IMG/VR virus record: IMGVR_UViG_2654587726_000023
Direction: 5' to 3' (one strand)
Origin: a virus
Taxonomy: Duplodnaviria; Heunggongvirae; Uroviricota; Caudoviricetes
DNA length: 11,878 bases
Positions 789 through 10,247 of the stretch are shown one piece after another; the first letter of the stretch is position 1, and each line of letters opens with the position of its first letter. Both the position numbers and the translations under genes were made by a program. The notes beneath the pieces were generated by a model that saw nothing but the letters and a program-made list of their open reading frames with translations, was not told the origin of the DNA and ran no database searches.

Positions 789-1319
789 ATGACAACGCTG
801 ACCATTAACCGGAAGCCGAAAGGCATTTACGGCACGCCGCAGAAAACGACGCAGGCGGCACAAGAGCAGGATAAAACCACATCGGCGCATAAAGTGATAC
901 CCGGCAATCAGAACGCACAGCAGAAGCCCACAGGGGCGACACCGTGGCAGCATATGACCAAAAGGCAGCGCAAAAACCGCCGACGCGTTAACCGCCTCAC
1001 TGAGATGTGGCCTGACTTATTCAGCCATAAAGCACCGAAGCCGCTTAAGGTGGGGATATTCGACGACCTGATGCAGGATATCGCCGTCAGGAGGCTGGCA
1101 TTCGGGCCGGGGGTATTACGTGCGACGCTGGCATCCTATGCGCAGTCTCCGCGCTATTACCGCGCCCTGATAGCTGGTGGCGCACGTTACGACCTGAAAG
1201 GCCAGCCATGTGGGGAAGTGACACCACAGGAACAGCAGGAGGCAGAAACACGGCTGATGGTGCTGAATGAGAAGCACAAGCGCCAGCGCCGGGCAGCAAA
1301 GGGGGATACATGCCAGTGA
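789..1319 (+). CDS. ProQ/FinO-domain RNA-binding protein
   Basis: 176 aa; basic N-terminal region (KRQRKNRRRVNRL) followed by PLKVGIFDDLMQDIA…LRATLASYAQSPRYYRALIAGGARYDLKGQPCGEVTPQEQ, closely resembling the ProQ/FinO domain core (PLKIGIFQDL…LRLYTSSWRYL…RVDLDGNPCGEL); strong RBS GGGGGAAGG before ATG 789. Confidence 0.65.
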   Translation: MTTLTINRKPKGIYGTPQKTTQAAQEQDKTTSAHKVIPGNQNAQQKPTGATPWQHMTKRQRKNRRRVNRLTEMWPDLFSHKAPKPLKVGIFDDLMQDIAVRRLAFGPGVLRATLASYAQSPRYYRALIAGGARYDLKGQPCGEVTPQEQQEAETRLMVLNEKHKRQRRAAKGDTCQ

Positions 1320-4804: not shown

Positions 4805-5099
4805 AGCCAGAATTACACCTGATGAAGTCAGGGCACATCTTCGACTTGATGATGATTTATCCGGTGAAGGCGAACTTCTGAAAATGTATACCGATGCGGC
4901 GCTGGAAGCCTGCCAGAAGCATATCGGGAAACGTTTTGAAGACGGGCTGGAATTTACCCCGGCAATGCGTGTTGGTTGCCTGATGTACATCGCTTTCCTG
5001 TACGAGAACAGGGAAGCAGTTTCACCAGTGGAGCAGTCTGAACTGCCTATGGCTATTTCTGCGCTCTGGTCGGTTTATCGTGATGTGGGGGTGTACTGA
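4797..5099 (+). CDS. Head-tail connector / DNA-packaging protein (phage gp6-like)
   Basis: 100 aa from ATG 4797 (overlaps portal stop in ATGAGTGA), RBS GGGAGA; N-terminus MSEARITPDEVRAHLRLDDD…LLKMYTDAALEA resembles gp6-like head-tail connector family. Confidence 0.55.
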   Translation: MSEARITPDEVRAHLRLDDDLSGEGELLKMYTDAALEACQKHIGKRFEDGLEFTPAMRVGCLMYIAFLYENREAVSPVEQSELPMAISALWSVYRDVGVY

Positions 5100-5539
5100 T
5101 GCCGTGGCAACCATTAAGGCGATGCACTGAGCCGGGCTGTAATAAGCGCGTGAAGTCCGGCAAGTGTGAAGAGCACAGACGGGCTGTATGGCGTGCAGAG
5201 GATGCCAGACGGGGACACCGCCGCGCGCGCGGGTATTCCCGACAGTGGGACAAATACCGCGCCCTGTACCTGAGCAAAAACCCGTTATGCGTGCGTTGTC
5301 TGGCTAAGGGGATTTATACGCCAGCTCTTGTGGTGGATCACATCATCCCCATCAATGGCGGCGGTGATGTTCTCTTCTGGCCTGAGTGGAACCACCAGGC
5401 ATTGTGCCAGACGTGCCACAACCGTAAGACGACACGGGAAGATCCAGCCACGAAAGCGAACCGTAAGGCGGGCATGTATCGCGAGCAGGAAGAACGGGCA
5501 GCACACCGTAACGACTGGATGTATGGCGATGATGACTGA
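5099..5539 (+). CDS. HNH endonuclease (packaging-associated)
   Basis: 146 aa; start ATG overlaps connector stop (TGATG); Cys-rich zinc region and HNH core …VVDHIIPINGGGDV…WNHQALCQTCHNRKT…; positioned just upstream of terS as in HNH-dependent cos packaging systems. Confidence 0.8.
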   Translation: MPWQPLRRCTEPGCNKRVKSGKCEEHRRAVWRAEDARRGHRRARGYSRQWDKYRALYLSKNPLCVRCLAKGIYTPALVVDHIIPINGGGDVLFWPEWNHQALCQTCHNRKTTREDPATKANRKAGMYREQEERAAHRNDWMYGDDD

Positions 5540-5708: not shown

Positions 5709-5827
5709 GGCCGTCAGAGGGGGTGGGGGTGGTTTTCAGGACGAAACCGTCCCTGCCGGACACCGACCGCCTCCTCAAATTTTTGTGCACGGGAATTTTT
5801 TTGAAAATAATTGGGCGAAAAAAGAAC

Positions 5828-6184: not shown

Positions 6185-7829
6185 GTACGCAGAAGGCGTA
6201 AAAAACGGCAAAATTACGGCCTGTAAACGACTGAAACAGGCCGTTAAACGGTATTTTTCTGACCTTGAAAACCCCCTTTACACGTTCGATCCGGAGGTCG
6301 TGGAGCGGTTTATTGCCTTTTCCAGGGTGTGTCCGCACGTAAAAGGCGCAATGCGCGGTAGCCCCATTGAGCTGGAGCCGTGGCAGCAGTTCGCCTTTGC
6401 GTGCATCCTGGGCTTTAAGGTTAAGGCCACCGGACGGCGCAAATACACCAGCGCATTCATTGAAGTGCCGCGAAAAAATGCCAAATCCACGGTCGCCGCT
6501 ATCCTGGCTAACTGGTTTCTGGTTATGGAAAACGGGCAGCAGGATATTTACACCGCCGCCGTGAGTCGTGATCAGGCGCGGATCGTGTTTGATGATGCGC
6601 GTCAGATGTGCCTTTTATCCCGACCGTTACGAAAGCGGGTAAATATTCAGGCACACAAGGTGATACACCCGAAAACCAACAGCCTGTTAAAGCCACTGGC
6701 AGCAAAAGCGGCAACCATTGAAGGTACAAACCCGAGTCTTGCCATTGTGGATGAATATCACCTGCACCCTGACAACGGGGTTTATTCCGCGCTTGAACTG
6801 GGAATGGGGGCGCGTCCGGAGGGGCTGTTATTTGCCATCACCACATCGGGGAGCAACGTTGTTTCAGCCTGTAAACAACACTATGACTATTGCTGCCAGA
6901 TACTGGATGGTGAAGAGGTGAACGAATCCATGTTCGTGCTGATTTACGAGCTGGATGATGAAAGCGAGGTTGACGATCCGGCGATGTGGATAAAGGCGAA
7001 TCCCAATATCGATGTTTCCGTCGATCGTGAAAAACTGGCCTCAACCATCCAGAAAGCGCGGGGTATTCCGTCGCAGTGGGTGGAAATGCTCACCAAGCGA
7101 TTCAATATCTGGTGTCAGGGGGCTACACCGTGGATGGGTAGCGGTGCATGGGCGGAGTGCGCCGGAACGTTCGCGGAGGCGGATTTATACGGTCAGGAGT
7201 GCTACGCGGGGCTGGACTTATCATCAACCAGCGATATTTCCAGCGTGTGCTATGCCTTTCCGGTCGGTAAAAAGATTATGCTGGTTTCCCGTCACTATCT
7301 GCCGGAATTTCAGCTACAGAACCCCGCCAATAAAAACCGCGCCATCTATCGCCAGTGGGTAAAGGCGGGCTGGATACGCACAACACCGGGTGACTGCATT
7401 GATTATGACCGTATCCGTGATGACATCATGGCGGATGCAGAGAATTTCAATATCAGGCTGGTGGGCTTCGATACATGGAACGCCACGCACCTGAGGACGC
7501 AGCTACAGGGGGCAGGATTTGAGGTGGAGCCGTTCCCGCAAACATACCTTCGTTTCAGTCCGGCGGCGAAATCGTTCGAAGTTTTTGTTAACCGGAAGGT
7601 GATTGTGCATCGTGGCGATCCGGTGCTGGCCTGGTCAATGAGTAATGTTGTGATGCAGAGTGACGCAAACGCCAATATCAAGCCGAACAAGAAAAAATCA
7701 TCCAACAAGATAGACCCGAGCGTTGCGGCTCTGATGGCGTTTGGCACATTCCAGGCAGAACATGAGGAATTTGCATTTGATATAAGCGACAGCCACAAAG
7801 AGCGGCTTGCGGCGTTTGATGGGGTATGA
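6168..7829 (+). CDS. Terminase large subunit
   Basis: 553 aa; apparent TTG start at 6168 with GAGGA RBS, overlapping terS end; motifs …LEPWQQFAFACILGF…, ATPase region …EVPRKNAKSTVAAIL…, …AIVDEYH…, nuclease-domain region …GLDLSSTSD…. Confidence 0.9.
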   Translation: MTAWHEYAEGVKNGKITACKRLKQAVKRYFSDLENPLYTFDPEVVERFIAFSRVCPHVKGAMRGSPIELEPWQQFAFACILGFKVKATGRRKYTSAFIEVPRKNAKSTVAAILANWFLVMENGQQDIYTAAVSRDQARIVFDDARQMCLLSRPLRKRVNIQAHKVIHPKTNSLLKPLAAKAATIEGTNPSLAIVDEYHLHPDNGVYSALELGMGARPEGLLFAITTSGSNVVSACKQHYDYCCQILDGEEVNESMFVLIYELDDESEVDDPAMWIKANPNIDVSVDREKLASTIQKARGIPSQWVEMLTKRFNIWCQGATPWMGSGAWAECAGTFAEADLYGQECYAGLDLSSTSDISSVCYAFPVGKKIMLVSRHYLPEFQLQNPANKNRAIYRQWVKAGWIRTTPGDCIDYDRIRDDIMADAENFNIRLVGFDTWNATHLRTQLQGAGFEVEPFPQTYLRFSPAAKSFEVFVNRKVIVHRGDPVLAWSMSNVVMQSDANANIKPNKKKSSNKIDPSVAALMAFGTFQAEHEEFAFDISDSHKERLAAFDGV

Positions 7830-8119
7830 CGAGAATGAGCGAAACCGAACTACTAAAAATAATCCGTCGCGTTACCGGAATCAGCCAGGAAGCAGGCAAA
7901 CAGGAGGCCACGCAGCCGGACAGCGTGATAGCCGAAAATTACGCGCGTGTGGTGGCTGAGGTGATGCGCCGTGACGGTATCGAGCTTAACGGCGTGGATA
8001 TACGCAATATACGCACCAGAGTTCTGGAGTTGTTGTCATATCGTCGCCGCGTGGAGATGTACCAGGAGAAAGAAAAAATTACTTACCACTGGAAGAAGCC
8101 GGAGCGGTTACGACGTTAA
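7826..8119 (+). CDS. Hypothetical protein (97 aa) downstream of terL
   Basis: ATG 7826 overlaps terL stop (ATGA); alternative ATG at 7835; no recognisable family. Confidence 0.45.
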   Translation: MTRMSETELLKIIRRVTGISQEAGKQEATQPDSVIAENYARVVAEVMRRDGIELNGVDIRNIRTRVLELLSYRRRVEMYQEKEKITYHWKKPERLRR

Positions 8120-8123
8120 CTTG

Positions 8124-8170
8124 TGGTGACATACCGTGACGGAGAGTGACAACCAGTGACACACAGTGAC
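8124..8170. repeat. Five helically phased copies of GTGAC at exact 10-bp intervals (core at 8126, 8136, 8146, 8156, 8166)
   Basis: Direct reading: tgGTGACataccGTGACggagaGTGACaaccaGTGACacacaGTGAC. Confidence 0.7.
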
Positions 8171-8192
8171 AAAAAGACGGTATTTAAATAGA

Positions 8193-8222
8193 GTGGGTGT
8201 TTAATACCCCCCGTTTTTTTTC
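8193..8222 (+). terminator. Possible weak intrinsic terminator (short GC stem then T8 run)
   Basis: GGG…CCC short stem followed by GTTTTTTTT at 8212-8221; stem is weak. Confidence 0.3.
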
Positions 8223-8373
8223 GTGTGGTGCATGGTCAAAATGACCACGGAGAAGATACGCACCGAAGCAGAACAATTACCGTAGGTTAAAGCGACAGTA
8301 TTCACACCAGCAACCTGATTATCAATTTTCAGCCGTTCGGTGGCATCACTGGCCCCATTTTCCTGATGGGGTT

Positions 8374-8526
8374 GCGGGTTATTTGGGGGGGATTTGCGGG
8401 TTATTTTGAATGTCTCGCGGGTTACGCTTTGGCTAATATTCAAACGCATCATTTTTTAACTCATTGATATTAAAGAATAAAAAATACTTAGCAAGCGAAG
8501 ATAACCCGCTAACCCGCATAACCCGC
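8374..8526. repeat. Iteron array 2: 3 copies of GCGGGTTA(T/C) at 8374, 8396, 8417 (about 21-bp spacing), ~75 bp AT-rich spacer, then 3 abutting copies of (A)TAACCCGC at 8501-8526; same 9-mer as array 1
   Basis: Direct reading; same inverted-iteron-flanking-AT-core architecture as 140-262. Confidence 0.6.
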
Positions 8527-8879
8527 ACTGTTTTGTATATATATATACGAAAAATTGCATTCAGGAGGTGGGATCGAAATCCCTACAACCCATTGCTTAT
8601 GGGACTGCCCGCCCCGTCAAATTTTTACACCCGCGAAAAATACTTCAAGCTGGTGGGCATGATGCCGATATGGGGATCCCCATGTCGACATTAACGCCCC
8701 TCATGAATTGGCGTGCTTCCCCCTGGAAAGATGACCCGCCTGTATATTTCTTGTGTCTATTTGTTCCACGTTGTTTCATACAGTGCACCGAACGGTGTAG
8801 TTACTGGTGTAGTCATTTTGCGATTTTTAAAGTTATCTAAGATATTATTTGTCGCTTAAATTCAATTAGTTATGAGTAT

Positions 8880-10247
8880 TTGATTATAAATAGCGGATAT
8901 GAATATCCGGCGAAAAAAATCACCATCAACCTTGCTCCAGCCGATCTGCCAAAAGAAGGGGGACGATATGATTTGCCTATCGCTATTGCGTTACTGGCGG
9001 CCTCAGAACAGCTTACAGCCAATAAGTTAGATGAATATGAATTAGTCGGAGAACTGGCGCTTACAGGCGCTCTGCGTGGCGTTCCCGGCGCAATCTCCAG
9101 TGCAACTGAAGCTATTAAGTCGGGCAGAAAAATTATCGTCGCGAAAGATAACGAAGATGAAGTGGGGCTAATTAACGGTGAAGGATGCCTGATAGCCGAT
9201 CATCTGCAGGCTGTCTGCGCGTTTCTGGAAGGTAAGCACGCTCTCGAACACCCGAAACCAACTAATGCAGTATCCCGGGCGCTACAACATGATCTCAGTG
9301 ATGTTGTCGGTCAGGAGCAAGGAAAGCGAGGACTGGAAATTACCGCCGCTGGCGGGCACAACCTTTTACTGATTGGACCGCCGGGAACAGGTAAAACAAT
9401 GCTCGCCAGCCGTATTAATGGCCTTTTGCCAGATTTAAGCAATGAAGAGGCACTGGAGAGCGCTGCGATATTAAGTCTGGTAAATGCTGAATCAGTACAA
9501 AAACAATGGCGGCAGCGCCCGTTCCGCTCACCTCATCACAGTGCGTCGTTAACTGCGATGGTGGGCGGTGGTGCAATTCCAGGGCCAGGTGAAATTTCGC
9601 TGGCGCATAACGGCGTGCTTTTTCTTGATGAGCTACCTGAATTTGAACGGCGTACACTGGATGCCTTGCGAGAGCCGATTGAATCCGGGCAGATCCATCT
9701 TTCACGCACACGAGCAAAAATAACCTATCCAGCCCGTTTCCAGCTTGTCGCGGCAATGAATCCCAGCCCTACCGGACATTATCAGGGAAACCATAACCGC
9801 TGCACACCAGAACAGACATTACGTTATCTCAACCGGCTCTCGGGGCCCTTTCTCGACCGCTTCGATCTCTCACTGGAGATCCCATTACCGCCCCCCGGCA
9901 TTTTGAGTAAAACGGTAGTGCCGGGAGAAAACAGCACCACCGTTAAACAACGTGTAATGGCCGCCAGAGAGCGCCAATTTAAGCGGCAGAATAAACTGAA
10001 CGCCTGGCTGGATAATCCGGAAATACGCCAATTCTGCAAGCTTGAAAGCGAAGATGCGCAGTGGCTGGAAGAAACGCTGATCCATCTGGGGTTATCGATT
10101 CGTGCCTGGCAGCGGTTATTGAAAGTTGCACGAACCATTGCTGATATTGATCAGTCTGACATTATCACACGTCAGCATTTGCAGGAGGCAGTTAGCTATC
10201 GTGCGATTGACCGTTTGCTCATCCATCTGCAAAAACTACTGACATAA
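8880..10247 (+). CDS. comM: ComM (YifB) Mg-chelatase-like AAA+ competence protein, 5-prime truncated by island insertion
   Basis: 455 aa frame beginning IINSGYEYPAKKITINLAPADLPKEGGRYDLPIAIALL…, Walker A GPPGTGKT; corresponds to E. coli YifB from about residue 51 onward as I recall it; upstream in-frame sequence diverges and hits a stop at 8838-8840; only a TTG at 8880 with no RBS. Confidence 0.85.
   Translation: MIINSGYEYPAKKITINLAPADLPKEGGRYDLPIAIALLAASEQLTANKLDEYELVGELALTGALRGVPGAISSATEAIKSGRKIIVAKDNEDEVGLINGEGCLIADHLQAVCAFLEGKHALEHPKPTNAVSRALQHDLSDVVGQEQGKRGLEITAAGGHNLLLIGPPGTGKTMLASRINGLLPDLSNEEALESAAILSLVNAESVQKQWRQRPFRSPHHSASLTAMVGGGAIPGPGEISLAHNGVLFLDELPEFERRTLDALREPIESGQIHLSRTRAKITYPARFQLVAAMNPSPTGHYQGNHNRCTPEQTLRYLNRLSGPFLDRFDLSLEIPLPPPGILSKTVVPGENSTTVKQRVMAARERQFKRQNKLNAWLDNPEIRQFCKLESEDAQWLEETLIHLGLSIRAWQRLLKVARTIADIDQSDIITRQHLQEAVSYRAIDRLLIHLQKLLT

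Follow-up and report, generated by a model that had tools for sequence, protein, structure and literature searches.

A mobile, iteron-like array of five phased GTGAC motifs at the late-operon end of PICI satellites in Escherichia coli

Results

The array and its surroundings

The window, which here means the whole stretch of 11,878 nucleotides that was analysed (IMG/VR record IMGVR_UViG_2654587726_000023), represents the right two-thirds of a capsid-forming PICI satellite (cf-PICI) of approximately 15 kb. It encodes an SSB, a ProQ/FinO-domain protein, an HK97-type capsid, a protease, a portal, a connector, an HNH, a P27/HK97-type small terminase (TerS), TerL and a 97-aa ORF which we refer to as orf97. 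L001 denotes the complete island, which has yifB/comM as its insertion site and encodes a tyrosine integrase, AlpA and a P4-type primase at its left end. The gene for the ProQ/FinO-domain protein (window 789–1319) was missing from the other PICIs compared, and in two of them, L123 and L124, a PerC-family regulator was found in its place. The features at the end of the late operon are as follows (window coordinates).

7826..8119, plus strand: orf97, a 97-aa ORF matching phrog_1561; the late operon ends with this gene, which is always the upstream neighbour of the array
8126..8170, plus strand: GTGAC iteron-type array with five cores (8126–8130, 8136–8140, 8146–8150, 8156–8160 and 8166–8170) and four differing spacers
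8171..8194, plus strand: A-run, GACGGT and an AT-rich stretch, AAAAAGACGGTATTTAAATAGAGT; right flank common to both types of downstream flank
8195..8222, plus strand: terminator-like hairpin GGGTGTTTAATACCC (8195–8209) and then a T run, from a terminator scan; ends the late (packaging) operon

All five GTGAC cores are in direct orientation with a period of exactly 10 bp, and the spacers, which in order are ATACC, GGAGA, AACCA and ACACA, with AAAAA after the last core, are all different, so that the array is no simple tandem duplication. The start at position 8124 given in the preliminary description merely includes two extra flanking bases before the first GTGAC. The exact 10-bp phasing that it reported was confirmed both by the coordinates and by shuffling, as the longest 10-bp-phased run of any 5-mer was two in 300 shuffles of the window compared with the five observed. 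At other periods, from 7 to 13 bp, no run longer than two was present in the window. The motif itself occurred 24 times in the window where 19.3 occurrences were expected, and as there is no window-wide enrichment of GTGAC the signal is wholly local.

From the orf97 stop codon it is 7 nt to the start of the array, after which come the AT-rich stretch and the hairpin. Since this terminator-like hairpin ends the late operon, the array is located in the 3' untranslated end of that operon. The distance from the array to the attR core, AATAGCGGAT (8890–8899), is 720 bp, which agrees with the earlier figure of approximately 700 bp from the junction. A promoter reading of the last GTGACA together with TAGAGT, which scores 9/12, was rejected, as transcription would run into the hairpin and the -10 element was not conserved in the other type of flank. 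Further downstream, a palindrome, GGTCAAAATGACC, followed by ACG was observed at window 8235–8250, and other PICIs (L124, L049) keep it as GGTCATAATGACCACGCAG in their 3' regions.

Other cis sites of the island

A direct repeat of 76 nt (78% identical) was found on both sides of the att core, at window 8746–8821 and at L001 2468–2543, and it contains tandem GGTGTAGTYA units, in two copies, which are located approximately 75–130 bp from the core on both arms (window units 8794–8817). These tandem units are probably the integrase arm-type sites. The same arm layout with a different repeat was observed in the Klebsiella island L002, where TGTATAAACA units are present at 4850–4875 and 5085–5108. 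The island's own origin lies just left of the window, at L001 8111–8330, after the gene for the P4-type primase. Its TGTTCACC/GGTGAACA iterons, of which there are eight or nine, surround AT-rich DNA and occur in both orientations. In other PICIs (L123, L148) this position is occupied by GGTAGACA/GGTAGATA iterons.

A conserved block, GGGGGTGGGGGTGGTTTTCAGGAC, was identified at window 5722–5750 within the gap between hnh and terS (5709–5827). It is common to the cf-PICIs of E. coli, Shigella and Klebsiella and takes the forms GGGGTGGGGG-NN-GTTTTCAGGAC and GGGGT(G)GGGGG-NN-GTTTTCAGGAC. LR881103, a linear Klebsiella cf-PICI record obtained from induced particles, terminates exactly after the CAGGAC of this block. 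The hnh-terS gap is the location of cos in HK97, and we consider the block to be a candidate cos of the cf-PICIs. No mapping of cos was found in the cf-PICI literature searched, nor were any further particle-derived cf-PICI records found which would confirm these ends. The HK97 TerS recognises a single 15-bp site located 15–29 bp from the cut, and no array (PMC11331095).

In the classical PICIs L123 (9070–9290) and L124 (9070–9260), the orf97 homolog is directly followed by (AACCCG)TTGATATTTTCG repeats and lambda-cosN-like sequences (e.g. CGCCAGCGGCGAACATCGGGG). This stretch, syntenic with the array, presumably represents the cos1/cos2 region that has been published for EcCICFT073.

Between the hairpin and the att core the window also contains direct repeats, GGGGTTGCGGGTTATTT (two copies), and AACCCGC units (gataacccgctaacccgcataacccgcac) at 8368–8406 and 8488–8530, around the start of an 83-aa ORF on the minus strand (8201–8452) which is restricted to this island lineage and had no family match. 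A segment at window 8560–8625, GGGATCGAAATCCCTAC...CATTGCTTATGGGA, is found directly after the array and hairpin in islands L162, L252 and L257, so that approximately 350 bp, including the 83-aa ORF, look to have been inserted here. This segment resembles a tRNA T-arm fragment and is possibly the remnant of an old att site.

Distribution, mobility and conservation of the array

Of 5,426 complete E. coli genomes, 207 carried the array, in every case on the chromosome. The carriers were both cf-PICIs and classical PICIs, with different integration sites and different left flanks. Islands were also sampled through homologs of orf97, independently of the array, which gave 36 distinct downstream sequences; the array was present in about one third of these, and none of the 36 sequences contained any other 5-mer repeated in phase three times or more.

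Anchoring on the conserved right flank alone (A-run plus GACGGT) recovered 11 variants of the array, among which one of 25 core columns was variable compared with seven of 20 spacer columns (Fisher p = 0.015). The right border of the module, AAAAAGACGGT, was kept in all variants. Two independent variants had lost exactly one 10-bp unit with the phasing retained, while in the allele of L308 and L311 the whole array had collapsed (…catcgagat-aaagacggtttaacc…) and both flanks were retained, making this a natural array-null island. As all variants have a common spacer ancestry, the array is a single module which has spread and not a product of convergent evolution. In every island context it was found on the sense strand, preceded by a stop codon and followed by the terminator hairpin; in three contexts it starts 7–17 nt past the orf97 stop codon and in L049-type islands it is 250 bp from orf97.

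The array is therefore real, conserved in core and in phase, and mobile among islands. The general expectation set out beforehand, that of a phased array for cooperative protein binding, gained support from these data, as the array is beyond chance, its cores are kept while its spacers vary, and unit-precise deletions keep the phase. As to conservation in related islands, which had been suggested as a check, the cores are kept in the 11 variants, and the array is absent from the islands L002, L123 and L124.

Lack of association between the array and island genes

Among the classical PICIs, L162 and L148 carry the array in the absence of the cf-type capsid, portal, HNH, TerS and TerL, while the Klebsiella cf-PICI L002 lacks it even though its TerS is 85% identical. 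Nor did the type of own origin predict its presence: with the TGTTCACC type, L001 has the array and L002 does not, and with the GGTAGACA type, L148 has it and L123 does not. The same arm repeats were present in two islands without the array, L123 and L124 (EcCICFT073 and an O157 island), whose AlpA proteins are 90–95% identical and whose orf97 proteins are 72–80% identical. No island protein was specific to the array-positive islands among the islands compared. The array is independent of the island TerS, Rep, Int and AlpA, and since no island gene tracks it, its reader is most likely a protein provided in trans.

Two further candidates were set aside. A partition centromere, one of the functions offered in the preliminary description, is disfavoured, as no partition ATPase or adaptor genes were annotated in the complete island or detected by Pfam among its proteins. 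The site matS, which is bound by MatP in the E. coli Ter macrodomain, is a 13-bp palindrome (consensus GTGACRNYGTCAC) whose GTGAC half-sites are in inverted orientation; it was rejected because the five cores of the array are all direct at 10 bp with no inverted partner.

A phage initiator family with GTGAC arrays inside its genes

A pattern scan of public collections for four GTGAC motifs at a 10-bp period returned, besides PICIs, a lambdoid prophage of E. albertii with six GTGAC motifs inside a 352-aa ORF (L011 3899–3956). This ORF comes after genes like cI, cro and cII and before a lambda P-like gene. It contains a DnaT domain, and its PHROG match is phrog_1408/3729 ("replication initiation protein"). 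The family to which it belongs combines a replisome-organizer-type N-terminal domain with a DnaT domain, and the next gene is lambda-P-like or a helicase. High-GC arrays located between terL and portal, also returned by the scan, were considered as a second satellite lineage and rejected, since they belong to ordinary tailed prophages, consist of near-perfect tandem 10-mers of slippage type and were found by the construction of the pattern.

A homolog of the initiator N-terminal domain was present in 52 of the 120 viral contigs having four phased GTGAC motifs (loci L125–L244). Identities ranged from 30 to 100% (31 homologs at 80% or more, eight at 50–80% and 13 below 50%), and in all 52 contigs the array was inside the N-domain match or within 300 bp of it. 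Read on the GTGAC strand, the phage architecture is conserved and consists of a short-repeat tract (TCTTTATC... or TCTTCTC...) and then 4–8 GTGAC units. In the 247 phage units GTGAC was preceded by C in 85% of cases, by T in 12%, by A in 2% and by G in 0%, while the invariance of the GTGAC core itself holds by construction of the search. The spacing was 10 bp in 80% of cases and 11 bp in 20%, with mostly 4–6 copies per array.

For a test free of this ascertainment bias, seven initiator homologs were picked by protein similarity alone. Four of the seven, from Aeromonas pAEv1818, Pseudomonas phita81A and the Escherichia phages Evi and 204576, contained two in-gene arrays, the second of which was then followed by GATAAAGATAAAGA; no in-gene arrays were found in the three most distant of the seven. 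In L245–L247 and L251 the in-gene arrays are at about 1329–1366 and 1588–1636. Because a 10-bp period shifts the reading frame with each unit it cannot stem from an amino-acid repeat, and the conservation is thus at the DNA level, within a coding gene, like that of the lambda ori in gene O. An insertion in the initiator protein results from extra units in the first in-gene array. Two in-gene YGTGAC arrays with a 10/11-bp period, together with the GATAAAGA-type tract, are probably the origin of this initiator family, for which no description of iterons or origin was found in the literature searched. The initiator type was present in 2,186 of the 5,426 E. coli genomes (40%), in up to five copies per genome, and each of the three strains closest to the window has at least one copy.

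Comparison of the island array with the phage iterons

The preliminary description was right to expect a phased protein-binding array, while the specific candidates that it named are each disfavoured and the closest natural counterpart, replication-origin iterons, was absent from its list. The island array and the phage initiator iterons have in common the GTGAC core, a direct head-to-tail repeat, differing spacers and a transcribed location, and the five copies at 10 bp of the island compare with 4–6 copies at 10 or 11 bp in the phages. They differ in several respects. The base before the core is G, C, A, A and A in the island compared with a pyrimidine in 97% of phage units, so that four of the five island units depart from the phage pattern. 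The GATAAAGA- or TCTTCTC-type tract which adjoins the phage arrays is absent from both flanks of the island array, and the AT-rich flank is on the opposite side relative to the orientation of the motif. The island array is non-coding, whereas the phage arrays are inside genes. The element common to island and phages is thus the 5-bp core and the geometry only, and as the preceding pyrimidine, the location in or beside a cognate initiator gene and the tract are all lacking, the island array is not a member of the phage origin class. We describe it as iteron-like and with a putative reader; its closest counterpart is the origin of an initiator family which is very common among prophages.

No cognate initiator gene was found in the island by tblastn with the N-domain, by Pfam scan or by hhalign of orf97 (probability of 0.3%). 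A blastn search of phage and plasmid collections for a donor of the module gave no match, and no sequenced phage or plasmid with the spacers of the island was found. The prototype cf-PICI has HK106 and HK446 as its documented helpers, neither of which was among the phages with the initiator domain.

Co-occurrence in E. coli was estimated with concatenated queries, the overlap being taken from the union count. The initiator was present in 133 of 207 array-positive genomes (64%), in 290 of 540 genomes which were PICI-positive and array-negative (54%) and in 1,763 of 4,679 PICI-free genomes (38%). Relative to array-less PICIs the excess was modest (OR 1.55, p = 0.01, with phylogeny ignored). The enrichment of the initiator is mostly a general association of PICIs with prophages (54% compared with 38%), and the excess specific to the array is weak.

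Discussion

We tentatively favour the view that the array is an origin-iteron mimic which is read in trans by a phage initiator and acts as a decoy or as an auxiliary origin, a reading which we hold as a real possibility while stopping short of calling it probable. A resident or infecting prophage would make an initiator of the GTGAC type, and monomers of this protein would bind head-to-tail along one face of the island array. The array on the induction-amplified island might then sequester or handcuff the initiator, in the manner of a competitor origin, or it might recruit the phage replisome to the island and so serve as an auxiliary origin. Both the binding of the initiator and its consequences are inferred. 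The wider proposal, that satellites carry a mobile mimic of the iterons of a common prophage family, which need not be that of the helper, and that the mimic captures the initiator to sense, exploit or throttle prophages via replication, is one that we put forward with a little more reserve, as possible and rather doubtful.

A laboratory precedent exists for the decoy. Plasmid-borne ori-lambda iterons silence the theta replication of rep-lambda phages, and the AT-rich part of the origin is dispensable for this effect (PMC3349717, Hayes et al. 2012). Titration or handcuffing of the O protein was proposed as the basis of this "inhibition phenotype", for which oop transcription was also required (PMC3349717). 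The likeness lies in iterons without a functional origin, placed in trans on a multicopy replicon and directed against phages of the matching replication type. The plasmid, however, was a laboratory construct needing oop transcription, whereas the island array is natural and is carried on a satellite, and its effect is putative.

The second parallel is with other satellite cis sites. Satellites are known to copy the packaging signals of their helpers (cos, pac) and to redirect terminases and capsids. Like the helper cos in P4 and in cos-type SaPIs, or the Rpp-specific cosB of EcCICFT073, the array is a short cis site on a satellite with a reader that may not be self-encoded, and it shares the 3' non-coding stretch in which classical E. 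coli PICIs keep their cos. Those sites serve packaging, whereas the array resembles replication iterons and follows no terminase type. No direct description was found in the literature on GTGAC iterons, on replisome-organizer-type origins or on the use of helper origins by satellites, and the literature on inducers of E. coli PICIs gave no useful information. If the proposal is correct, replication would join the phage functions which satellites tap or sabotage, by means of a cis element of 45 bp. The work also yielded, as a by-product, a probable layout for the origin of an initiator family which 40% of complete E. coli genomes carry.

The chief alternative is that a different protein which stacks head-to-tail, either a host protein of the winged-helix response-regulator type or an island-wide protein such as orf97, binds the array, and that its role is regulatory, as a roadblock, in termination control or as a nucleoprotein landmark. 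We regard this as possible but, on balance, unlikely. The geometry of the array, in which a pentamer is followed by five bases and a further pentamer as a direct repeat, is typical of tandem winged-helix binding, and sites of the OmpR/PhoB/CpxR type, which have this geometry, provide a lead. The mismatch of the flanking bases with the phage iterons also leaves space for another binder. We know of no host factor with such a phased GTGAC site, and matS, with its inverted half-sites, is unlike the array. For orf97 itself, the position of the array within 7–17 nt of its stop codon in three contexts is suggestive, but orf97 is found equally in array-less islands, the orf97 proteins of array-negative L123 and array-positive L148 are nearly identical, and in L049-type islands the two are 250 bp apart. 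No DNA-binding fold or family was detected in orf97. As a candidate binder it was rejected: it had no Pfam match, its sole PHROG match was to phrog_1561, a function-unknown family, and its comparison with the initiator N-domain gave the hhalign probability of 0.3% noted above. A single-sequence AlphaFold model of orf97 was all-helical with a pLDDT of 71, and Foldseek found no match with E below 0.4 in PDB or BFVD. Should another factor bind, the late operon of PICIs would still end in a regulatory element that is both conserved and mobile.

Recognition of the array by a terminase, as a cosB-like recognition or wrapping site of the island small terminase or of a helper terminase, is in our view improbable. 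It would suit the position of the array just after the terS-terL-orf97 genes, the lambda-type cos which classical PICIs have in the syntenic stretch after the orf97 homolog, and the GTGAC tandem repeat found in the terL-portal gap of an unrelated high-GC phage lineage. The earlier suggestion of a TerS recognition site is nevertheless disfavoured, because islands without an HK97-type TerS, TerL and HNH (L162, L148) carry the array while L002 lacks it. The conserved block and the end of LR881103 are both in the canonical hnh-terS gap, with the array approximately 2.4 kb downstream of this gap, and HK97 TerS reads one 15-bp site near the cut (PMC11331095) and not an array.

An equally improbable reading places the function in RNA: the late-operon 3' UTR would present five GUGAC motifs to an RNA-binding protein or would be processed into a small RNA. 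The invariable location on the sense strand between stop codon and terminator hairpin would be in keeping with this, as would the ProQ/FinO-family protein encoded by the island, but the ProQ gene is missing from the other array-positive islands. The predicted fold was no better than that of shuffled sequences (z = -1.1), the terminator hairpin being the only stable structure. A 10-nt period fits the DNA helix, and the occurrence of the same core and phase in phage origins favours a reading at the DNA level.

It is slightly less probable again that the array is a neutral repeat, born of slippage and without function. Its copy number does shift by whole units, and the L308/L311 allele has lost the entire array. 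However, the spacers are all different, unlike those of slippage repeats, the cores are kept while the spacers vary (p = 0.015), and the module has spread over different island types and integration sites.

We give very little credence to the array being a set of integrase arm-type or excisionase (RDF) accessory sites, as the preliminary description had also suggested. On the minus strand the unit TGTCACT is loosely like part of the arm repeat GGTGTAGTCACT, and the array occupies the side of the island away from int, but the likeness hangs on the most variable spacer. Clear arm repeats are present elsewhere, in tandem and approximately 75–130 bp from the core on both arms, compared with 720 bp for the array, and array-less islands have the same arm repeats and an AlpA that is 90–95% identical.

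P4 requires a second iteron cluster in cis and so has two separate clusters, ori and crr, which are bound by the alpha primase-helicase. The island likewise has a P4-type primase with TGTTCACC iterons after its gene, and one base separates the own-origin iteron TGTTCACC from TGTCAC(T/C), but that the array is a second, crr-like replication site of this primase is the least probable reading of all, since the sequences are off by an indel, the array does not co-vary with the type of own iteron, and islands of both the TGTTCACC and the GGTAGACA type occur with and without it.

The decoy or auxiliary-origin reading which we prefer concerns prophage iterons, and GTGAC-type iterons may serve other replicons too. 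In a contig of Scandinavium hiltneri (13,974 bp, approximately 1,170x coverage; L028 1400–1880) five GTGACC motifs at a 10-bp period were observed together with more GTGACC/GGTCAC pairs. This origin-like region also contains AGTGGC iterons and AT-rich DNA and adjoins a primase-related 561-aa ORF, and the contig is plasmid-like or satellite-like.
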